Source: a virus. Taken from it: DNA of 11,086 nt. Made by a program: the position numbers and the translations under genes. The notes beneath the pieces are model-generated. The model saw only the letters and a list, made by a program, of their open reading frames with translations, ran no database searches and had not been told where the DNA came from. Below, piece after piece: positions 1 through 11,086 of the stretch; position 1 is the stretch's first letter, and each line of letters begins with the position of its first letter. The stretch is taken from the UHGV virus genome UHGV-0145753; one strand, given 5' to 3'.

Positions 1-9
1 TGCAGCGTA

Positions 10-43
10 GTCTCGTGGGCTCGGAGATGTGTATAAGAGACAG
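10..43 (+). other. Illumina Nextera read-2 transposase adapter (sequencing artefact, not biological)
   Basis: Positions 10-43 read GTCTCGTGGGCTCGGAGATGTGTATAAGAGACAG, which matches from memory the 34-nt Nextera read-2 adapter ending in the 19-bp Tn5 mosaic end. Positions 1-9 (tgcagcgta) are probably index or adapter-dimer derived; unverified. Confidence 0.88.
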
Positions 44-3000
44 CCTGTAGAACAGCCCGATTCGGCTCAGTCAATGGCGCGCTGCCGCATGCTGCTGGCG
101 CTCGGGGAGGGGGAGTTTGCTGGTGGCCTGGATGCGACCCGGATATTCCTGGACGGTACGCCGTTGGGAAACCCCGACGGAACGATGAATTTTGAAAATG
201 TGTCATGGGATTTCCGGCCTGGCACACAGACCCAGACACCAATACCGGGATTCCCTGCAGTCGAGAATGAAACTACGGTTGGGGTATCGCTGACAAAGGC
301 CACACCATGGACCCGCGCACTGAGTAACACCCAGATTGACGCGGTGCTGGTTCGTATTGGCATCCCTGGGTTACAGCAGCAGGAAAACGATGGGGATATT
401 GTCGGCACTACGGTTCAGTACCATATTGATCTGGCGGTGGACGGTGGCGCTTACTCGACAGTCATGACGAAAACCGTCACAGAGAAGCTCAGCTCGCTCT
501 ATGAACTAACCCACCGTATTAATCTTCCCAAAGCCAGCACTGGCTGGCAAATTCGAGTGGTGCGTGACACCGATGACAGCACCAGCCAGATGCTGCAGAA
601 CAAAACGCAGGTGCAAGCGATTACTGAAGTGATCGATGCTCGCCTGCGATATCCACACACAGCGCTGCTGTACGTGTCCTTTAACGCAAAGTCATTCAAC
701 AACATCCCTAAGATTTCCTGCATGCCGAAGGGGCGCATCATCCGAATCCCTTCGAACTATGATCCAATAGCGCGGACTTATAGCGGAACATGGGACGGGA
801 CGTTTAAATGGGGCTGGACGAATAACCCGGCGTGGATTTGGTTCGATGTTCTGACTGAGCCGCGCTTCGGCCTTGGGCGCCGCGTGACGCCAGAAATGCT
901 CGATAAGTGGGAGCTCTATCGCATCGCCCAGCGCTGCGACCAGAAGGTACCCGACGGGAAAGGCGGAAGCGGTACCGAGCCACGCTTCATGTTTGACGTT
1001 TACATCCAGTCCCAGGCTGATGCCTGGCAGGTGATTAAAGATATTGCCGCGGGCTTCAACGGAATGACTTTCTGGGGCAACAACATGTTCAATGTTGTCT
1101 CTGACATGCCGGCGGACACTACGAAGTTGCAGATCCTCACTCGCGCATCAGTGGTGGGTAAGCCGGTGTACTCGAGTGGCAGTGAGAAAAACCGATTCTC
1201 CAGCGCGCTGATTAACTTCAGCGATCCGGATAACCACTACCAGGACCGCACCACGGCAGTGATGTTTCCGGAACTGGTAAGGCAGTTCAAGTTTAAGCAG
1301 ACACAAATCACTGCGATCGGTTGTACGCGTGAGAGCGAGGCGCAGCGGCGTGGCGGGTGGGCGGGGTATTCCAACTCCCTTGACCGCATTATCACGCTTC
1401 AGACTGGACTTGATGGCTTTGTATTTGTGCCGGGCACCGTATTTGCGTTTGCAGATGAACGCCTGTCAGGGCGCGTTTACGGCGGGCGTATCACCGGGTA
1501 TAACGCTGGTCTTAAGGCCGTGACCATTGACCGGGGCACCAGTGCGGTGGCGGGCGATACGCTGATGATTCGCACCCAGGGCGGTACCGTTGAAAGCCGG
1601 GTGATACAGGCCGTAAATGGCACGCAGCTGATCCTGTCCACGCCGTTCACGGCGGCGCCATTACCTAATGCCGTATTCGTCATTGATGCTGGTCAGCTGC
1701 GCCTGCAGTATTTCCGGGTAACGAACCTAAAATTTGATGATGAGGAAAACACCTTCACCATTACCGGTGCGGAGTATAACGCGTCGAAATACGACGCCGT
1801 TGATAACAACGCTCGCCTCGATACTCCTCCGATAAGCCTGATTCCGACCGGGCTAGTTAACCAGCCGACCAACATCGTGGTATCGAGCTATGATGCGGTT
1901 CGCCAGGGGCAACGCGTGGCCACGCTAACCGCCTCGTGGGATGCGCCAATTGATAAAGACGGCAAACTGCAGTCGGACGTAATAGCGTACCGGGCACAGT
2001 GGAAGCGCGGAAATAACGAATGGGTAAACGTGCCTGAAACCGGGTTACGAAATATCGAAGTGCCTGGCATTTTCGAGGGCGATTACCTTGTGCGCGTCCG
2101 TGCGATTAACTCTGGGGGAGCGTCCAGCCTTTGGGCCACGTCTGCGTTGACCCATCTTACCGGCCGCACCGGTGAAGTGCCCAAACCTGTCGGACTAACA
2201 GCAACAGAGGATGTTGTATTTGGGATCAACATTACATGGGGTTTCCCCGCAGATACCGCCGACACCCTGAGCACGGAACTGCAATACAGCGCTTCAGTCG
2301 ATGGGGCAAATCCAATGCTTTTGGCGTCGGTGCCGTATCCTCAGAAACTCTATCAGCAGATGGGGCTGAAGGCAGGGCAGGAATTCTGGTACCGGGCACG
2401 GCTGGTTGACCGCATCGGGAATCAGAGCGACTGGACAGACTGGGTGCGCGGGCAGGCCAGCATCGATGTTTCCGATATCACCGATGCAATCCTGGAGGAC
2501 ATGAAAGGCTCCGATACGTTCAAAGATCTGATCGAGAACGCGGTGGACAGCAACGAAAAAATTGCTGGCATGGCTAACGATATCAAACAGGCTAACGACG
2601 AACTGGAGCAGCAAGCGAAAGATATCGCCAAAAATGCCCAGGACGTAGGGAAGGTTCAGACCAGCGTTAATGAGCTTTCCAGCACGGTCGGGAATGTTTC
2701 GTCTTCACTCAGTCAGCTTGAGCAGACCGTTGCGACGGCTGATACCGCCCTGGGCCAGCGAATCGACAACATCAGCGTTTCTATGGACGGCATGACGGGC
2801 GGGGTGAAGAACTCTGCAATTGCGATAATCCAGGCAAACCTCGCTCAGGTGGCCACGCGTAAAACCCTTTCTGCATCGGTCGCCGGCAACAGCGCGAATC
2901 TGGACCGTATTGATGAGGTGATTGTCAACGACAGGGAGGCAACGGCGCGCTCGCTGCTGAGCCTGCAGACGGACGTTAACGGCAACAAGGCATCCATCAA

Positions 3001-3571
3001 CAGCCTGAACCAGACGTTCTCCGATTACCAGCAGGCTATGGCCACGCAGGTAAACAGCATCACGGCGACGGTGAACGGGCATACCTCAGCCATCACAACC
3101 AACGCTCAGGCTATAGCGAACGTAAACGGCGACCTCAGCGCGATGTACAACATCAAAGTTGGTGTCTCCAGCAACGGGCAGTATTACGCCGCGGGGATGG
3201 GTATCGGCGTGGAGAATACGCCATCAGGCATGCAGTCACAGGTAATCTTCCTGGCAGACCGTTTCGCCGTGACTACTATGGTCGGCGGGACTGTAACACT
3301 GCCGTTCGTTATCCAGAATGGCCAGGCCATTATCAGGGATACAGTCATTGGCGACGGGACCATAAGCAATGCAAAAATTGGCAATTACATCCAGTCGAAC
3401 AATTATGTTGCCGGCTCTGTTGGCTGGAAACTGGATAAGTCCGGGACGTTTGAGAACTACGGTTCGACAGCTGGGGAGGGAGCCATGAAGCAGACCAACC
3501 AGACAATCAGCGTCAAGGATGGCAACAACGTTCTGAGAGTGCAGGTTGGCCGATTAACGGGGGTGTTCTGA
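44..3571 (+). CDS. J: Phage host specificity / tail tip protein J (lambda gpJ family), 5'-truncated at the contig edge
   Basis: Long ORF whose translation aligns by eye with lambda gpJ from near its N-terminus (e.g. RIPSNYDPIARTYSGTWDGTF versus lambda LQVPSNYNPQTRQYSGIWDGTF). The ATG at 29 lies inside the adapter, so genuine coding sequence starts at 44 in the same frame and a few N-terminal codons are missing. Stop TGA at 3569-3571. Confidence 0.9.
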   Translation, partial: PVEQPDSAQSMARCRMLLALGEGEFAGGLDATRIFLDGTPLGNPDGTMNFENVSWDFRPGTQTQTPIPGFPAVENETTVGVSLTKATPWTRALSNTQIDAVLVRIGIPGLQQQENDGDIVGTTVQYHIDLAVDGGAYSTVMTKTVTEKLSSLYELTHRINLPKASTGWQIRVVRDTDDSTSQMLQNKTQVQAITEVIDARLRYPHTALLYVSFNAKSFNNIPKISCMPKGRIIRIPSNYDPIARTYSGTWDGTFKWGWTNNPAWIWFDVLTEPRFGLGRRVTPEMLDKWELYRIAQRCDQKVPDGKGGSGTEPRFMFDVYIQSQADAWQVIKDIAAGFNGMTFWGNNMFNVVSDMPADTTKLQILTRASVVGKPVYSSGSEKNRFSSALINFSDPDNHYQDRTTAVMFPELVRQFKFKQTQITAIGCTRESEAQRRGGWAGYSNSLDRIITLQTGLDGFVFVPGTVFAFADERLSGRVYGGRITGYNAGLKAVTIDRGTSAVAGDTLMIRTQGGTVESRVIQAVNGTQLILSTPFTAAPLPNAVFVIDAGQLRLQYFRVTNLKFDDEENTFTITGAEYNASKYDAVDNNARLDTPPISLIPTGLVNQPTNIVVSSYDAVRQGQRVATLTASWDAPIDKDGKLQSDVIAYRAQWKRGNNEWVNVPETGLRNIEVPGIFEGDYLVRVRAINSGGASSLWATSALTHLTGRTGEVPKPVGLTATEDVVFGINITWGFPADTADTLSTELQYSASVDGANPMLLASVPYPQKLYQQMGLKAGQEFWYRARLVDRIGNQSDWTDWVRGQASIDVSDITDAILEDMKGSDTFKDLIENAVDSNEKIAGMANDIKQANDELEQQAKDIAKNAQDVGKVQTSVNELSSTVGNVSSSLSQLEQTVATADTALGQRIDNISVSMDGMTGGVKNSAIAIIQANLAQVATRKTLSASVAGNSANLDRIDEVIVNDREATARSLLSLQTDVNGNKASINSLNQTFSDYQQAMATQVNSITATVNGHTSAITTNAQAIANVNGDLSAMYNIKVGVSSNGQYYAAGMGIGVENTPSGMQSQVIFLADRFAVTTMVGGTVTLPFVIQNGQAIIRDTVIGDGTISNAKIGNYIQSNNYVAGSVGWKLDKSGTFENYGSTAGEGAMKQTNQTISVKDGNNVLRVQVGRLTGVF

Positions 3572-3572
3572 T

Positions 3573-3875
3573 ATGGCTTATGGAATACAGACCTGGGATG
3601 CTTCGGGAAACCCCAACAACTACGGAATCAAGCCCGTTTCCGTTGTTGGACGTATACAACTTGCCGCCGGACAAAACTCCGGCAGCTGGTCTTTCACTGT
3701 ACCCTCAGGAATGAAGGTCGGTTTTGCGCTCTCACTTGATGAAGGAGGTAACAGCGTAGGGAGGAGCATTGTCGCGTCAGGGAACACAATAACCGTAACC
3801 GCAGCCTCTTCTGTGGGCCTGGGTAATTACCCGGCCTCTAAATGTGAGGTGGTCGTTTTCATGGAGAAAGCATAA
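3573..3875 (+). CDS. Hypothetical phage protein (tail-region accessory), 100 aa
   Basis: ORF starts 2 nt after the J stop with a G-rich Shine-Dalgarno-like stretch upstream; its stop overlaps the next start (TAATG). Shares a WDASG motif with the next ORF. Confidence 0.6.
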   Translation: MAYGIQTWDASGNPNNYGIKPVSVVGRIQLAAGQNSGSWSFTVPSGMKVGFALSLDEGGNSVGRSIVASGNTITVTAASSVGLGNYPASKCEVVVFMEKA

Positions 3876-4549
3876 TGGCCGAATTTGGCGCGATGATATT
3901 AATGGATAACGGGAATCCCTTTGTAACGCCACAATCAACGCCTTTCTGTCTTTACGGGAAGTATACCTTCAATTCATCCGCGAATGGCAGTTCTCAGCAG
4001 GTTGCTCAAAATATCGCTTTAAACGCTGATTACCCAGTGATGGTTTTTATCAAAACCACCAATACAGCACAGCCCACTCCGGTTATGTCTTACAGGAACG
4101 GCGGTAATGTGTATGTTGCTGGTGTTAATCCCTACAACCAAAGTTTCACTTTAACGGCGTACGTTTTTGCCATATTCCCGCAGATATTACCGAAATGGGG
4201 TTTGGCAATATGGGATGCGAGCGGAAAGCTTGTGTTAACTAATGAGTCCCGTGTGCTATCAGACCTGCAGACGGTTGGCACGCCTGGTGCAAACGGCGGG
4301 ATAAATATTGACCAGACGCTGAGCGGGTCATGGGCCGTTGCACCTGCTCAGTTGGGTCAGACCATCATTGTGAATAATTCAACCCGGCCTCCGACTATCT
4401 ACACGATAAATGCTTATTCTTCATGCAGGTTTGACGGGGCCAATACGAGGATAAACGCAGGGGGGACCTCCACTGGGGCAGGTTCACCTGGAGGGGGAAC
4501 GAATACTGGCATTTCATTAACCGCCATAAATACAGCGGCCTATGATTGA
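3875..4549 (+). CDS. Hypothetical phage protein, 224 aa, apparently two copies of the domain seen in the preceding ORF plus a Gly/Thr/Asn-rich C-terminus
   Basis: Start is translationally coupled to the upstream stop (TAATG). Contains AIWDASGKLVL mid-protein and a second weaker DNGNP-type motif near the N-terminus, resembling QTWDASGNP in the 100-aa ORF. Confidence 0.62.
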   Translation: MAEFGAMILMDNGNPFVTPQSTPFCLYGKYTFNSSANGSSQQVAQNIALNADYPVMVFIKTTNTAQPTPVMSYRNGGNVYVAGVNPYNQSFTLTAYVFAIFPQILPKWGLAIWDASGKLVLTNESRVLSDLQTVGTPGANGGINIDQTLSGSWAVAPAQLGQTIIVNNSTRPPTIYTINAYSSCRFDGANTRINAGGTSTGAGSPGGGTNTGISLTAINTAAYD

Positions 4550-4660: not shown

Positions 4661-4894
4661 ATGAGAAAACTGATTATCTGCATGGCAGGCGCTGTCATGC
4701 TTACAGGATGCGCTGGCGTAATTGAGAAACAGGAACCAGTTTGCAGCGGCACTGCAATCGTTGGCGGTCAGGAAACTACGGTTCAGATTTACGGTGTGCG
4801 TAAACAAAACAACCAGACGCAGTACCGGGCTGGATATCCTTTCAGCTGGCGCTGGGTAAGTGCGAATACATTTACCGAAACAACCTGCAAATAA
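4661..4894 (+). CDS. Small secreted lipoprotein (77 aa); position and size consistent with a Cor-like superinfection-exclusion lipoprotein
   Basis: N-terminus MRKLIICMAGAVMLTGCAG has a hydrophobic signal sequence followed by an L-T-G-C lipobox. The gene sits between J and the side tail fibre with its own AT-rich upstream region and a downstream terminator (moron-like). The Cor assignment rests on context only. Confidence 0.65.
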   Translation: MRKLIICMAGAVMLTGCAGVIEKQEPVCSGTAIVGGQETTVQIYGVRKQNNQTQYRAGYPFSWRWVSANTFTETTCK

Positions 4895-4938: not shown

Positions 4939-4954
4939 ATTGCCTGGAGAAAAT

Positions 4955-5896
4955 ATGCTTTATAACACCGGCACCATCGCCATTAATGGAAATACCGCCA
5001 CCGGGACGGGTACAAACTGGACGGCACCGGCCAGCCAGGTCCGCGCTGGCCAGACGATTATCGTGATGTCTAACCCGGTGCAGCTGTTTCAGATTTCATC
5101 CGTGAACAGCGCCACGTCAATGACGGTAACGCCTGCTGCATCACCGGCGCTGAGCGGCCAGAAGTACGGCATTCTGGTATCAGACAATATCTCGGTTGAT
5201 GGGCTGGCGCTGGCCATGTCGCAGCTTATCAAGGAGTATGACGAGAATATTGGTGCGTGGGAGACGTTCGCCACAACCTCAGCCAACCAGAACATTACCG
5301 TTACGATCAATGGCACCAGTTTATCAATCCCGGCTCTTGGGAAATTACTGCAGAAGGGGAGCAACGGAGCTTTGCCGGTTAATCAAGGTGGTACCGGCGC
5401 AACGAATGCCGCAGACGCTCGCACAAACCTTGGTTTGGGAGAAGGTTCGGTGTTACCCGTTGGTGTGCCTGTTCCGTGGCCTGCAGCCACTCCGCCAACA
5501 GGCTGGCTGAAATGCAATGGTGCGGCTTTTTCTGCTGAAGAATACCCAGAACTGGCAAAGGCTTACCCGACAAATAAATTGCCTGATTTACGTGGTGAGT
5601 TTATGCGTGGCTGGGATGATGGAAGAGGCGTTGATAGTGGCAGGGGGATTCTCACTGCGCAATCTCATGGTATGCCGTCTATTTCAGGAACGTTTAATGG
5701 TCTTTTTGCTGTTAAACAAACAAATGGTTTAGGTGGTGTTTCTGTAGCAAAAAGTACAAATACTGAAACTTTATCTACTTCATCTGGATCAGGTTCCGTG
5801 TTTGATTACACGTTTAATGTCAGCGGTTCGACTCCGGTATCACCAGAACTTCGTCCGCGTAATATTGCATTTAACTATATCGTGAGGGCCGCATAA
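4955..5896 (+). CDS. Side tail fiber protein: constant N-terminal part (to about 5430) fused to the currently expressed variable C-terminal part carrying a phage tail-collar-like domain
   Basis: GGAG Shine-Dalgarno 7 nt upstream of ATG 4955 (the ORF-track start at 4940 is a TTG). The N-terminus MLYNTGTIAINGNTATGTGTNW is fibre-like, and the C-terminal motifs (PTGWLKCNGAAFSAEEYPELAKAY, LPDLRGEFMRGWDDGRG) are typical of tail-collar domains. The left inversion site lies in-frame at 5418-5443. Confidence 0.85.
   Translation: MLYNTGTIAINGNTATGTGTNWTAPASQVRAGQTIIVMSNPVQLFQISSVNSATSMTVTPAASPALSGQKYGILVSDNISVDGLALAMSQLIKEYDENIGAWETFATTSANQNITVTINGTSLSIPALGKLLQKGSNGALPVNQGGTGATNAADARTNLGLGEGSVLPVGVPVPWPAATPPTGWLKCNGAAFSAEEYPELAKAYPTNKLPDLRGEFMRGWDDGRGVDSGRGILTAQSHGMPSISGTFNGLFAVKQTNGLGGVSVAKSTNTETLSTSSGSGSVFDYTFNVSGSTPVSPELRPRNIAFNYIVRAA
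5418..5443. repeat. Left recombination site of the invertible segment (gix/hix/pix-like), crossover dinucleotide TT at 5430-5431
   Basis: CTCGCACAAACC-TT-GGTTTGGGAGAA. Positions 5430-5444 are the exact reverse complement of 7254-7268. The half-site resembles the Hin/Gin-type consensus (TTCTC..AAACC) as I recall it. It is embedded in-frame in the tail-fibre gene (codons N-L-G-L-G-E). Confidence 0.7.
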
Positions 5897-6498
5897 TGAA
5901 TAATGCAGAATTAAATAGTGAATTGATTGCTACTGCGGCAGGGAATATTACCGTTTATAACTATGATTGTGAAACACGAGAATATATTTCCACATCAACT
6001 GAATATCTTGCTGTGGGTGTCGGTATCCCGGCATGTTCCTGTCTGGATACACCAGGTATACATAAGGCGGGTTATGCAATATGCCGCTCTGTGGATTTAA
6101 ATTCATGGGAATATGTGCCAGACCATCGAGGTGAAATTGTCTATAGCACCGAAACGGGAGATACCAAAGAAATCACAGTGCCAGGCGACTATCCCGAAAA
6201 TACAACCACTATCGCCCCGTTAACGCCATACGATAAATGGGATGGTGAGAAATGGGTGACCGATATTGAGGCACAGCATAGCGCCGCAGTAGACGCGGCA
6301 GAAGCGCATCGCCAATCGCGGATTGATGCTGCAATGGCTTCCATCAGTCTGATTCAGCTGAAATTGCAGGCCGGACGTAAACTGACGCAGGCAGAAACAA
6401 CCCGGCTTAACGCTGTGCTGGATTACATTGACGCGGTGGTGGCAACAGATACCAGCACCGCGCCGGATGTCATCTGGCCTGAACTACCGGAGGCGTAG
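5896..6498 (+). CDS. tfa: Tail fiber assembly protein (Tfa chaperone) for the currently expressed fibre variant
   Basis: Start overlaps the fibre stop (TAATG) with a GAGGG Shine-Dalgarno upstream. C-terminal motif LDYIDAVVATDTSTAPDVIWPELP is typical of the conserved Tfa C-terminus. Confidence 0.8.
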   Translation: MNNAELNSELIATAAGNITVYNYDCETREYISTSTEYLAVGVGIPACSCLDTPGIHKAGYAICRSVDLNSWEYVPDHRGEIVYSTETGDTKEITVPGDYPENTTTIAPLTPYDKWDGEKWVTDIEAQHSAAVDAAEAHRQSRIDAAMASISLIQLKLQAGRKLTQAETTRLNAVLDYIDAVVATDTSTAPDVIWPELPEA

Positions 6499-6913
6499 GC
6501 CATTCAATATCTGGAGCACTGGAAATATCGACCATTTCCAGTGCATCCAGATAATCCAGCCACAAATTATATTGTGCCAGTTCCTCACCTTTCAGACGAC
6601 CGATAGCTGCTTTACCAGGCCATTGCTTACCGTTCATGTATTCGTTGGCATGGTCAATTCTCGACTTTTTCTCTGAGTCAGCCGCAGCAAGTTGTTCTTT
6701 ATGCGTAGGTGACGGAAGATCTACCCAGCAAGGCAACCCATCATCACCAATGCCACGCATTTTACCCTCAGGAGCGTTTCCCATGAAAACCAGTGCATCT
6801 TCAGCATCTATATTGATGCCGTCTGACGGCCATGTGCCAGCAGTTAAATAATCATATTTCAGTGCCACAAGATAAAAAGCATTTTCCGTCGGGCTGAATA
6901 CATAGTCGACCAT
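6470..6913 (-). CDS. tfa: Alternative tail fiber assembly protein (Tfa-alt), in the silent orientation
   Basis: Conserved Tfa-type C-terminus (LWLDYLDALEMVDISSAPDIEWPTPP). Preferred start is the ATG at 6913, which overlaps the Sv-alt stop in a TAATG junction mirroring the + strand arrangement and has a GGGAG upstream; the ORF-track start at 6931 would add 6 aa. Its 3' end overlaps the + strand tfa convergently by 29 bp. Confidence 0.72.
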   Translation of the reverse strand: MVDYVFSPTENAFYLVALKYDYLTAGTWPSDGINIDAEDALVFMGNAPEGKMRGIGDDGLPCWVDLPSPTHKEQLAAADSEKKSRIDHANEYMNGKQWPGKAAIGRLKGEELAQYNLWLDYLDALEMVDISSAPDIEWPTPPVVQAR

Positions 6914-7268
6914 TAATATCCCACTCCCCATACTGCCACTGTTGAATTAGATTTCGTGTATGCGCAAGCGGCTTTGAATTTGACCCGGTCAACAATCGCT
7001 GCGCTAACAAAAGGGGCTCCATTAGTCGCGTAGATCACAGAATTGACCAGCGAAGGATTGATGGAAAGGCAAGCATTAGGAAAGGCAACCGGCCATGAGC
7101 CATCAACAACGACCATATTACCGTCGGTAGATTGCGGCACTGATAGCGTCTTCCACTGAAGCAATGCTGTTCGTTGTACTCCACCAATTAATACTGGAAT
7201 AGTGATGTTACCTGCACTGCTGGCTAATGCTGTCGCAGCAGGCATTTTCGCTGCTTCTCCCAAACCAA
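6913..7268 (-). CDS. Alternative tail-fibre variable C-terminal cassette (Sv-alt), promoterless and startless; it would be fused in-frame to the constant part after inversion
   Basis: The minus-strand reading frame is open from the right inversion site to a stop at 6913-6915. Across the site it encodes V-G-L-G-E, matching L-G-L-G-E at the left site in the same codon phase, so recombination at the central dinucleotide keeps the frame. The ORF-track start at 7287 is a TTG beyond the crossover. Confidence 0.62.
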
Positions 7269-7280
7269 CCTTTTTTATAA
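7255..7280. repeat. Right recombination site of the invertible segment (gix/hix/pix-like), crossover dinucleotide AA at 7267-7268
   Basis: TTCTCCCAAACC-AA-CCTTTTTTATAA. Its left half and centre are the exact reverse complement of the left site's right half and centre. It lies about 60 bp upstream of the invertase start. Confidence 0.7.
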
Positions 7281-7339
7281 CCATCAAAAATCTGGTGATG
7301 CTTCGCCGTTTCTCCTGTTTTCATAACAGGAGAAATCCC

Positions 7340-7888
7340 ATGATTTACGGTTATGCCCGAGTATCAACAAACCACCAGGACACTGAATTGCAACTAACGG
7401 CGCTCAAGTCAGCGGGTTGTGAGAAAATTTTTGAAGAGCATGCCAGCGGGAGGAAATCGAATCGGCCGGTTCTAAAACGGCTGATCGCCACTATGCAGCC
7501 GGGGGATGAACTGGTGGTCTGGAAGCTGGACAGGATAGGCCGCAACGTTCTGCATGCGCTGTTGATGTTCCAGCAGTTACAGGAAAAGGGTATCAACTTC
7601 CGCAGTATTACCGATGGCGTGGATCTCAAAACAGCCAGCGGCCGCTATAACTTTCGTAACATCCTTTCCGCAGCACAATATGAATCTGATCTTAATAGCG
7701 AACGTACCTTAGCAGGGCTGGCCGTAGCCAGGGCAAAAGGGCGAGTTGGTGGTCGCAGGCCTAAGTTCACGGATGAGCAATGGCGGGAAATGGGGGAGCG
7801 GATGGCAACCGGTGAATCACGACAAAGCGTATCAAAAACGTATGGAGTAGGGCTCTCAACTCTGTATAAAAAGTTTCCAGCTAGCTGA
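7340..7888 (+). CDS. Site-specific DNA invertase, serine recombinase of the Hin/Gin/Cin/Pin family
   Basis: AGGAGA Shine-Dalgarno 7 nt upstream of ATG 7340. N-terminus MIYGYARVSTNHQDTELQ has the catalytic Ser at position 9 (Gin: MLIGYVRVSTNDQNTDLQ) and the C-terminal helix-turn-helix ends GLSTLYKKFPAS (Gin: ALSTLYKKHPAK). About 182 aa; the upstream in-frame extension in the ORF track (from 7202) overlaps the inversion site and is not used. Confidence 0.93.
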   Translation: MIYGYARVSTNHQDTELQLTALKSAGCEKIFEEHASGRKSNRPVLKRLIATMQPGDELVVWKLDRIGRNVLHALLMFQQLQEKGINFRSITDGVDLKTASGRYNFRNILSAAQYESDLNSERTLAGLAVARAKGRVGGRRPKFTDEQWREMGERMATGESRQSVSKTYGVGLSTLYKKFPAS

Positions 7889-7909
7889 TAACGGGAAAGA
7901 AACAGAGAA

Positions 7910-7950
7910 GGGCACAAATATTGTGTACTTTAATGTGCCCTTTAATTTAT
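7910..7950 (+). terminator. Putative terminator hairpin after the invertase gene
   Basis: Perfect 7-bp stem GGGCACA (7910-7916) and TGTGCCC (7934-7940) followed by a T-rich tract (tttaatttatt). The loop is long (17 nt) and contains a TGTGTAC motif, so this could instead be a protein-binding site. Confidence 0.4.
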
Positions 7951-8113
7951 TGATTGGTGGTTGAATTGTCCGTAACTTTTTGATTTAAGTGCAAATTTCT
8001 AATAAATTAGAACACTTTCTTAAATTGTCATTTGGCATATTACGAACAATTCCGCGTAAAAACGTTCTGTTACGCTAAACCCTTATCCAGCAGGCTTTCA
8101 AGGATGTAAACCA

Positions 8114-8136
8114 TAACACTCTGCGAACTAGTGTTA
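8114..8136. repeat. Inverted repeat TAACACT-N9-AGTGTTA; candidate att core-type site pair or operator
   Basis: Perfect 7-bp arms with a 9-bp spacer, inside the AT-rich intergenic region between invertase and integrase and about 30 bp upstream of the TGTGTAC repeats. Confidence 0.3.
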
Positions 8137-8164
8137 CATTGCGTGTAGCTTTGAGTGGGCAACT

Positions 8165-8207
8165 TTGTGTACACTTTTGTGTACCCAAAAACAAAAATGT
8201 GTACCCA
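8165..8207 (+). repeat. Three direct copies of a TGTGTAC(C) motif just upstream of the integrase start; candidate integrase arm-type or regulator binding sites
   Basis: TGTGTAC at 8166-8172 (within the palindrome GTGTACAC), 8178-8184 and 8198-8204. The last two are TGTGTACCCA 10-mers spaced 20 bp apart. A fourth TGTGTAC lies at 7922-7928 in the hairpin loop after the invertase. Confidence 0.45.
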
Positions 8208-8211
8208 TTCA

Positions 8212-9405
8212 ATGATCACCGACACAAAGCTCAGGAAGGCGCTCGGCAAGAAAAGAGATGATATCGAGATTATTTCTGATTCGCACGGGCTCAACGCCAG
8301 AATCAGCCAGGCCGGAAAAATATCATTTTTCTATCGGTATCGCTGGGCCGGTAAAGCGGTAAAACTCAATGTTGGTGATTATCCTGCAATGAGTATCACC
8401 CAGGCAAGAGAGCGTCGCCAACAATTCAGAAACTGGTTAACTGAGGGACTGGATCCGCGAGAGCAGGTGAAGCTGGATAAGCAGACCCGACAGGAAGCGA
8501 TGTCCGTTGCCGAAGCGTTCAATTACTGGATTGAAAGGCACTGTATCGCTAACGGGCTAGTTAAAGTCGATTACTATCGCCAGGTGTTTGAGAAACATAT
8601 CGCCGAACCGATGAAGAATGTCAAAGTCGATAACACAGCGAAAATGCACTGGATCAACGTCTTCGATTCTATAGAAAGCAGGGTGATGGCTCATTACATG
8701 CTTTCGCTGTGCAAACGGGCGTTTAGGTTCTGCGTTAACAGAAGTGTGATCGCCTCAAACCCACTCGAGGGATTACTGCCATCTGATGTCGGGCAAAAGC
8801 CTAAAAAGAGAACTCGCAGGATGGACGATGACGATCTGCGCAAAATCTATCAGTGGTTGAAAAGCCATATGTCGATAGAGTCCGTTTTCCTGGTGAAATT
8901 TATTATGCTTACCGGATGCCGTACGGCTGAGATTCGACTTAGTGAGAGATCATGGTTTCGATTGGATGATAATGAGTGGGTCGTGCCTGCGGGCAGTTAT
9001 AAAACTCGGGTACATATTAGAAGGGGGCTCTCAGACGCCGCCGTTAACTTGGTCAGAAATCACCTCAAGAAAATAAACACCAATCACCTGGTGACTTCAC
9101 AACGTAAAATTGATGGCGGGATCAAAGATTCGCCCGTTCATTCACCTGTGGCATCCAATTACGCCCGTTCTATTTGGAATGGAACAGGTATGGCAGAGTG
9201 GTCGCTTCATGATATGAGGCGGACGATAGCCACAAATCTCTCTGAGTTAGGTTGCCCGCCGCACGTAATTGAAAAGCTACTTGGTCATCAGATGGTCGGT
9301 GTAATGGCTCACTACAATCTGCACGACTACATCGATGACCAAAAACACTGGCTCCACGTTTGGCAGAGCCATCTTGAAAGTATCATTGGTGAGCCATTCA
9401 GTTAA
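8212..9405 (+). CDS. int: Tyrosine site-specific integrase, P4-type (N-terminal arm-binding domain plus C-terminal catalytic domain)
   Basis: N-terminus [17 protein letters not shown]...[23 protein letters not shown]...[18 protein letters not shown] fits the P4-integrase arm-binding pattern. The C-terminus has the catalytic signature ([19 protein letters not shown]...AHY). Start chosen at ATG 8212; the ORF track begins at an upstream GTG (8155) that would put the repeats inside the coding sequence. No strong Shine-Dalgarno at either. Confidence 0.9.
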
Positions 9406-9598
9406 TTGGCTGTTTCACACCTTCCCACTCTTTGACTGACTCCGACTTCCAGCGGTTTGGGTTACCAGGAAAATCAGGAGCAGGGAACGGCTTCGCAAAA
9501 CCCCGCGGCATAGTTTCTGTGCTTTGCCATGACCAAAGGGTTTTACGTGAGATTTTGTATCGACTGGTCAGGTCTGACGTCAGCAAAATATCATCCAT
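9398..9598 (-). CDS. AlpA/Xis-like small helix-turn-helix protein (putative excisionase or recombination directionality factor, or transcriptional regulator)
   Basis: 66 aa with GGAG Shine-Dalgarno 9 nt upstream. The pattern ...[11 protein letters not shown]...FPAP..........W....VKEW resembles AlpA (..RATIYDWL..ATFPKK......W.EAEIDEWL). It is convergent with int and overlaps its 3' end by 8 bp. Confidence 0.55.
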
Positions 9599-9643: not shown

Positions 9644-9886
9644 TCAACTCACCTGACCCGGCAGCGCTCGCAATCTGCGCATGCCTGTCATCGCCGTGGC
9701 CACGTAACTCGCCTTGCGGTTCACTACCTCCACCCAGACCTTCACACCTTCAACTCTCACCGTGTACGTTTCCTTCATCTTGCTGCGTCCGTAGTCGCCG
9801 TAGCGTTCGTGATGAGTGGCCAGCGCGATGTCGCATGCCTGACGCGCTATCGGGGATTGCTGATTGCCGCGGTTAATCAGTTTCAT
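9644..9886 (-). CDS. Hypothetical protein, 80 aa
   Basis: The ATG at 9886 overlaps the stop of the upstream gene (ATGA), indicating translational coupling within a minus-strand operon. No recognisable motifs. Confidence 0.45.
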   Translation of the reverse strand: MKLINRGNQQSPIARQACDIALATHHERYGDYGRSKMKETYTVRVEGVKVWVEVVNRKASYVATAMTGMRRLRALPGQVS

Positions 9887-10077
9887 GCTTCACCGCCATC
9901 TGGGTTGGATGATTGACGGAAAATTGCTCGGGACGGCGACCAATCGCAATATGTATCAGTTTCGGTATGCCCGAAAATTGTCTTACAGCGGCGGATATGG
10001 GCGCAGTCGCCGCAAGTCTTACCCTTCGGGAGTTTCATTTTGTCGGGGTCTGCCGGGTTATAATTCAGCTCAGTCAT
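9883..10077 (-). CDS. Hypothetical small Cys-containing protein, 65 aa (possible zinc-binding)
   Basis: Preferred start is the ATG at 10077, with GGAGG 8 nt upstream, overlapping the stop of the upstream gene (ATGACTGA); the ORF track extends it to 10221 in a region that overlaps that gene. Contains C-x2-C-x5-C-x12-C (CGDCAHIRRC...YC). Confidence 0.45.
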   Translation of the reverse strand: MTELNYNPADPDKMKLPKGKTCGDCAHIRRCKTIFGHTETDTYCDWSPSRAIFRQSSNPDGGEA

Positions 10078-10414
10078 TCCAGGCCTCCAGCTCGTTCTGA
10101 ATTTCCTCGTCGATCTCGTCATTGGTGGCATCATGATTGAGATATGTGAGAGCTTCTTTCCGATACTGTGCGCGGCGTTCGCTGTACCATGCTGAAAACT
10201 CAGGTGACCAGCCTCGACCATTACCCTGAAAATCTACAAGAGCGTTGTCCTCTGCCATGCGCTCAACCATGCAGTCGGCAGTTGTCAGGGCGCACTCACG
10301 GATATACCGGCGTAGATCCCGCTTGCGCCAGTACGGGCTATATTTCGAGTCGCAACGACCTTTAAATTCGACGGCCCAGCGACGGATGCAACGTGCATTT
10401 AATGATTTGCTCAT
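10070..10414 (-). CDS. Hypothetical protein, 114 aa, with an acidic C-terminus
   Basis: ORF in the same minus-strand operon, with its stop overlapping the next start. A GC-rich hairpin lies just upstream of its start. No recognisable family. Confidence 0.5.
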   Translation of the reverse strand: MSKSLNARCIRRWAVEFKGRCDSKYSPYWRKRDLRRYIRECALTTADCMVERMAEDNALVDFQGNGRGWSPEFSAWYSERRAQYRKEALTYLNHDATNDEIDEEIQNELEAWND

Positions 10415-10448: not shown

Positions 10449-11086
10449 TCAGCCCACGTATTCCGGTTTCATATCTGCCAGGGTAATGCTGAACTTATCG
10501 TGCAGCTCGTCGCCCAGATGACGTTTCGCCGTTGCCAGAACTCGCTCAACTTCCCCGAAACGCGCTGCTGCATCCGGTTCGTCCGGAGACGGTAGGGAGT
10601 TGATCGCGGCCTCAACCTTGTTACGTGAATCAACCAGGTAATAGCGTTTTACTGCTTTGTTCTTCAGTTCGGTGAACAGGGCTGAACCCAGTGTGGCCTT
10701 CGCACTTTCGATATCAGCGCGTAGTGCTTTGGCGCTATCAACATCCTGTGCGGCATCGATGCGTTCGCGGAAACCATCTGCCAGTGAGTCGATGTTTCCT
10801 GATTTTTCCTGCTTGCTCTGCGTGGTTGTTATGGTGTCACCTGAAATTTCAGACAGGCTAACGTGTTGCGCCGGAGCAGGGTTAACTTCTCGCTCTTCAC
10901 GGCGATCATCCAGTTCATCAGGGGTATACACGCCGAGAATTACATCCGGGCAGAACAGTCTCGCCCAACGTTTCACGGCGAGATAAGCGAGCTGCTGGCG
11001 AGGGTCGTCAGCCCAAAGCGTTGAATTACGAGTCCTGGCCTGTGCCAGTAGCAGGTCAAGTTCCCTCGGTTGATCTTCACCTTTCA
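10449..11086 (-). CDS. Hypothetical protein, 5'-partial (reading frame open to the window end)
   Basis: The minus-strand frame has no stop from 11086 down to the stop at 10449-10451. The ORF-track start at 10976 is a GTG and the frame continues upstream (...LWADDPRQQLAYLA), so the gene begins beyond the window. Charged, Ala-rich, helical-looking sequence; function not recognised. Confidence 0.5.
   Translation of the reverse strand, partial: KGEDQPRELDLLLAQARTRNSTLWADDPRQQLAYLAVKRWARLFCPDVILGVYTPDELDDRREEREVNPAPAQHVSLSEISGDTITTTQSKQEKSGNIDSLADGFRERIDAAQDVDSAKALRADIESAKATLGSALFTELKNKAVKRYYLVDSRNKVEAAINSLPSPDEPDAAARFGEVERVLATAKRHLGDELHDKFSITLADMKPEYVG

Follow-up and report, generated by a model that had tools for sequence, protein, structure and literature searches.

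The stretch of DNA analysed here (the window; 11,086 nt of the virus genome UHGV-0145753) opens with the tail-tip/host-specificity gene J, truncated at its 5' end (44..3571, + strand) and identified by its Pfam domains and by DNA identity to the J genes of the Escherichia coli H5 prophage and of phage HK639. The domains FNIII-A_GpJ, Phage-tail_3 and Phage_Tail_Tip were detected with E-values of 1e-44, 5.6e-12 and 1.1e-49, respectively, all above the curated cut-offs. The J of HK639 and of E. coli prophages, a lambda-like TipJ, carries the same set of Pfam domains and shows a DNA identity of 83-99% to the window from base 44 onward. Comparisons along the gene showed that J resembles this group from base 44 to ~3440 (83-96%), and that bases 2351-3572 also resemble the C-terminal part of J in HK022, HK106 and mEpX1 (84-88%). 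The J genes of the latter three phages are closer to this C-terminal third of the window J, indicating that the gene is a mosaic. J is followed by two conserved membrane-protein genes (3573-3875 and 3875-4549) and by the exclusion gene cor (4661-4894). The HK022-like C terminus of J together with a cor gene, as in HK022 and phi80, would presumably point to a receptor of the FhuA type.

Judging from its sequence, the window is a fragment of a lambdoid phage resembling phi80, mEp237 and HK225. A tail fibre gene and the gene of its assembly protein (4940-5896 and 5896-6498) are followed by an inverted alternative fibre and assembly set (6470-6931 and 6913-7287, - strand; 6470-7287 as a whole) and by a gene for a Pin-like serine invertase (~7340-7888). 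A 20-nt inverted repeat inside the tail fibre gene (5425-5444 and 7254-7273, 90% complementary) brackets one fibre C terminus with its assembly gene on the + strand and the alternative set on the - strand, after which the invertase lies. The region from 4940 to 7888 is an invertible tail fibre segment of the Mu G, P1 C or e14 P type. The attP core (~8009-8025), int (8155-9405), xis (9398-9598, - strand), a DUF4060-like gene named from its homologues in mEp237 and E. coli KL53 (9644-9886, - strand) and two small ORFs that overlap as listed and were assigned no function (9883-10221 and 10070-10414, - strand) make up the following part. The intergenic region between pin and int (7880-8170) shares 99% identity with the region annotated as attP in mEp237, which is of the phi80 type, and the integrated prophage of E. 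coli KL53, located beside kch, matches the window only from ~8006 onward. Thus, the window has the gene order of an un-integrated phage across attP rather than that of a prophage junction.

At the right end, a recT-like gene (10449..11086, - strand) can be aligned with the full-length RecT of E. coli KL53 and is cut by the window end at about codon 153 of 364, with no adapter at this end. The ORF list contains a closed GTG ORF of 175 aa at the same place (10449-10976, - strand), which was rejected because the translation shows a frame that is open to the edge, as expected of a truncated recT. Since recT and J are both cut, both ends of the window are fragment ends inside genes, and the contig is therefore regarded as an assembly fragment from a lambdoid phage similar to phi80 and mEp237.

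Composition of the first 43 bases

The window starts with TGCAGCGTAGTCTCGTGGGCTCGGAGATGTGTATAAGAGACAG and continues past the 43/44 junction as CCTGTAGAACAG.... Bases 10-43 are identical to GTCTCGTGGGCTCGGAGATGTGTATAAGAGACAG with no mismatches, confirming the first-pass annotation, which had called them an exact copy of the Nextera read-2 adapter including the Tn5 mosaic end. The same 34-mer has been published as the Tn5ME-B oligonucleotide of the Illumina Nextera system (Picelli et al. 2014, PMC4248319) and consists of a 15-nt primer site and the 19-bp Tn5 mosaic end. A text search of the literature showed that it co-occurs with the word Nextera. In the window it gives a single match when up to three mismatches are allowed, and none of 200 shuffles contained a match. 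The first part of the 34-mer is the Nextera B-side tag GTCTCGTGGGCTCGG, the primer site for read 2 and the index read (10..24, + strand, exact). The second part is the mosaic end AGATGTGTATAAGAGACAG (25..43, + strand), which is exact, occurs once in the window and directly abuts the insert.

That all of the first 43 nt are library-derived had been claimed as well, with bases 1-9 left unexplained; the claim holds, and these nine bases now resolve into a kit index and one base that fits P7. Bases 2..9 (+ strand) read GCAGCGTA, which is the Nextera i7 index N721 in the primer orientation. The N721 primer is listed as CAAGCAGAAGACGGCATACGAGAT-GCAGCGTA-..., with the index read TACGCTGC (PMC7589761 Appendix B). 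The remaining base (1..1, + strand) is a T, in agreement with the last base of the P7 flow-cell sequence ...CAAGCAGAAGACGGCATACGAGAT (...CGAGAT); as one base only of the 24-nt P7 part, it cannot by itself prove P7. Every base from 1 to 43 can be assigned in this way to P7 (1 nt), N721, the B tag and the mosaic end, the assignment of base 1 being a fit. In comparison with the complete Nextera i7 adapter (P7 - N721 - Tn5ME-B), all 43 bases match in order and orientation, and the only difference is the single base from P7. Four of five features of such an adapter (the mosaic end abutting the insert, the B tag, a kit index and an inward position at a contig end) are present in full, and the fifth, the P7 flank, is represented by one agreeing base. 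A screen of the whole window, right end included, for the Nextera A-side, TruSeq, P5, P7 and natural IS50 ends revealed nothing further, leaving bases 1-43 as the only adapter-derived part.

The junction and the N terminus of J

Alignment showed that the identity to natural J genes of phages and prophages starts exactly at base 44, the first base past the mosaic end. A megablast search of complete E. coli genomes and phages placed the start of homology at base 40, but inspection attributed the extra bases to a fortuitous ACA and a gap, which leaves 43|44 as the true junction. The natural start of J lies 48 nt upstream of the position corresponding to base 44 of the window, both in the E. coli H5 prophage, taken from a complete genome, and in the phage isolate HK639. 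A comparison with a complete relative had been proposed earlier; in the HK639-type relatives the counterpart of the missing N terminus reads MEAITGAKGGSQKQHT or a close variant and precedes PVEQPDSAQ.... The N-terminal regions of the H5 and HK639 J proteins have 96% identity to the window J. The J of mEp237 has a more distant N terminus, with a natural start of its own.

Public assemblies give the same picture. A search of IMG/VR and a metagenome collection with bases 44-77 of the window returned 25 contigs, one of which is cut 25 nt upstream by its own contig end. The adapter precedes J in none of the 25, and all 25 carry the natural upstream sequence or a close variant of it. As in the H5 prophage and HK639, this upstream DNA is ATGGAAGCG...CACACA or a near variant. 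The junction between the adapter and J also had no match in a collection of genome contigs. A joint between the same 43 nt and J in independent assemblies, which would have spoken for a natural sequence, was thus found in neither set.

The ORF list and its translation place the start of a 1180-aa ORF (29..3571) at a spurious GTG (29..31, + strand). The J frame is closed upstream by an in-frame TAG at 8-10, formed by the end of the index and the first adapter base, and the five codons from 29 to 43 are encoded by the adapter (V/M-Y-K-R-Q). The first-pass annotation had located an ATG at 29 inside the adapter. The start does lie inside the adapter, but its codon is GTG; an ATG occurs at 27-29 (...AGATGTG...) out of the J frame, and the G at base 29 is common to both. 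In comparison with the J of HK639 and the E. coli prophages, the window J lacks the first 16 codons and has the five adapter-encoded residues instead. What is left of the gene is 1175 real codons (44-3568) and a stop, beginning at the natural codon 17 (PVEQPDSAQ...). A complete J would follow the tail-assembly gene I and open with a start codon of its own, and here the natural ATG and 16 codons are absent. The position of the start codon inside synthetic sequence supports the view that the predicted start of J is false and that J is truly truncated at its 5' end, as had been proposed; the identity from base 44 and the natural N-terminal coding sequence that continues upstream in the relatives support it further. 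No record was found for a protein identical to the artefactual 1180-aa product, whether V or M was taken as its first residue.

The same adapter in public viral sequences

A search of IMG/VR with the 42-mer composed of the index N721 and Tn5ME-B found 48 places in 47 loci, 45 of them from a single dataset (3300045988); the contig of the window is not among these 47. All 48 copies are directed inward, at a distance of 1-72 nt from a contig end. In 46 of the 48, the bases 5' of the index (the nearest 8 nt or fewer) form an exact suffix of P7, and the other two contain sequencing errors. The inserts past the mosaic end are all different. They are enriched in G at insert position 1 (24/48) and in C at position 9 (20/48), which agrees with the target preference of Tn5. 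The end position, the inward orientation and the N721 42-mer of the contigs from dataset 3300045988 are all as in the window; the IMG/VR cases differ in that most keep 3-7 bases of P7, compared with one in the window. These results suggest that a single untrimmed library gave rise to many adapter-tipped viral contigs, mostly in this dataset. Five IMG/VR contigs (006138, 014239, 034748, 165500 and 001800) carry N721 and the adapter at both ends.

With bases 1-43 of the window as the query, the 34-mer was found in 44 GenBank phage records, with hosts as diverse as Bacillus, Streptococcus, Listeria, Staphylococcus, Pseudomonas, Acinetobacter, Paenibacillus, Salmonella and Escherichia. The identity ends at the boundary of the index, at base 10 of the window (in a few records, at 8 or 9), as would be expected if bases 2-9 differ between libraries. 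The copies are mostly located within ~100 nt of the record end. Several copies are internal, for example in Pseudomonas phage SaPL (at 6673), in Paenibacillus phage Pd_22F (at 28031) and in T4-like coliphages (at 110-146 kb). The record MK327946.1 (Escherichia phage vB_EcoM_G4507, deposited as a 'complete genome') contains poly-T, the full P7, the index CAGCCTCG and Tn5ME-B in the middle of the record (~76,645-76,759), where the gene of the gp5-like 'baseplate hub subunit and tail lysozyme' is split into two CDS (76072-76752 and 76768-77976). This internal adapter resembles the product of a misjoin or an insertion mediated by adapter sequence. Papers dedicated to adapter contamination in public assemblies were sought in the literature, with no directly useful result.

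Origin of the contig edge

Taken together, bases 1-43 are almost certainly an untrimmed adapter from the i7 side of a Nextera library, and the edge inside J would accordingly be an artefact of library preparation and assembly. The adapter composition and the exact junction were observed directly, and we infer the remaining steps. During library preparation, Tn5 would have inserted into the phage DNA immediately upstream of base 44, as the exact junction indicates. Where a fragment was shorter than the read, read 1 would then have continued past the insert into CTGTCTCTTATACACATCTCCGAGCCCACGAGAC-TACGCTGC-A..., the sequence of bases 1-43 in reverse complement. If the trimming of adapters from the reads was absent or incomplete (the Nextera sequence used for adapter trimming is CTGTCTCTTATACACATCT), the assembler could have extended the contig along this read to a dead end, probably with few or no other reads crossing. 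The ORF finder would finally have taken the first start after the in-frame TAG, the GTG at 29, producing the false N terminus. The genomes of lambdoid phages end at cos, next to the terminase genes, and not within J. The earlier view of the contig edge as an assembly break without a biological boundary is consistent with the relatives, which run through the junction, and with the right end, which cuts a gene as well.

Alternatively, the adapter could be an internal chimeric join, the window being part of a longer contig that unites two fragments through adapter sequence. Internal adapters of this kind exist, as seen inside the gp5-like gene of MK327946.1 with its poly-T, P7, index and Tn5ME-B. 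However, the cut that produced the window would then have to fall, by chance, exactly one base into P7, the adapter lies close to a real contig end in all of the 48 comparable IMG/VR cases, and the first-pass annotation itself names base 1 as the start of the contig. A chimeric join is thus considered very improbable. Still less credence is given to the edge being a real discontinuity in the sampled DNA, such as a deletion or a rearranged variant without everything upstream of J codon 17, to which the adapter is incidental; the adapter-tipped end would in this case happen to mark a genuine structural variant. A contig that follows the adapter branch suggests that few or no reads crossed base 44 into the upstream part of J, which would be compatible with a discontinuity. 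However, Tn5 adapters mark sites of transposition and not pre-existing DNA ends, and the complete genomes and all 25 public contigs run straight through the codon-17 point. Moreover, tail assembly would be impossible with neither the N terminus of J nor the upstream tail genes, and low local coverage accounts for the break more simply.

The weakest reading, a natural end of the Tn5/IS50 transposon inserted in the phage J, has a negligible probability and is ruled out by the exact match to the synthetic oligonucleotide and the index: although the last 19 nt of the adapter derive historically from the IS50 ends, they are identical to the engineered mosaic end, no match within two mismatches was obtained with the natural outside and inside ends (19-mers), a synthetic B tag and a kit index precede the mosaic end, and no natural element explains why phages of unrelated hosts, Gram-positive as well as Gram-negative, carry an identical string, mostly at the ends of their records.

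The untrimmed adapter remains the preferred explanation, and it involves no new biology: the edge is a routine artefact of data cleaning and a textbook example of contamination by adapters. The significance of the finding is limited to data quality. The remedy is to remove bases 1-43 and to annotate J as 5'-partial, with 1175 real codons and 16 missing. If the window is left untrimmed, a protein with a false N terminus (M/V-YKRQ...) enters protein sets, and the synthetic 34-mer creates spurious similarity links between unrelated contigs, for example those of Bacillus, Streptococcus and Listeria phages. Contamination of this kind is widespread across public collections of viral sequences and also affects some deposited 'complete' phage genomes, and adapter screening before gene calling is therefore worthwhile. 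Some of the GenBank copies of the 34-mer sit under annotated 'hypothetical proteins'.
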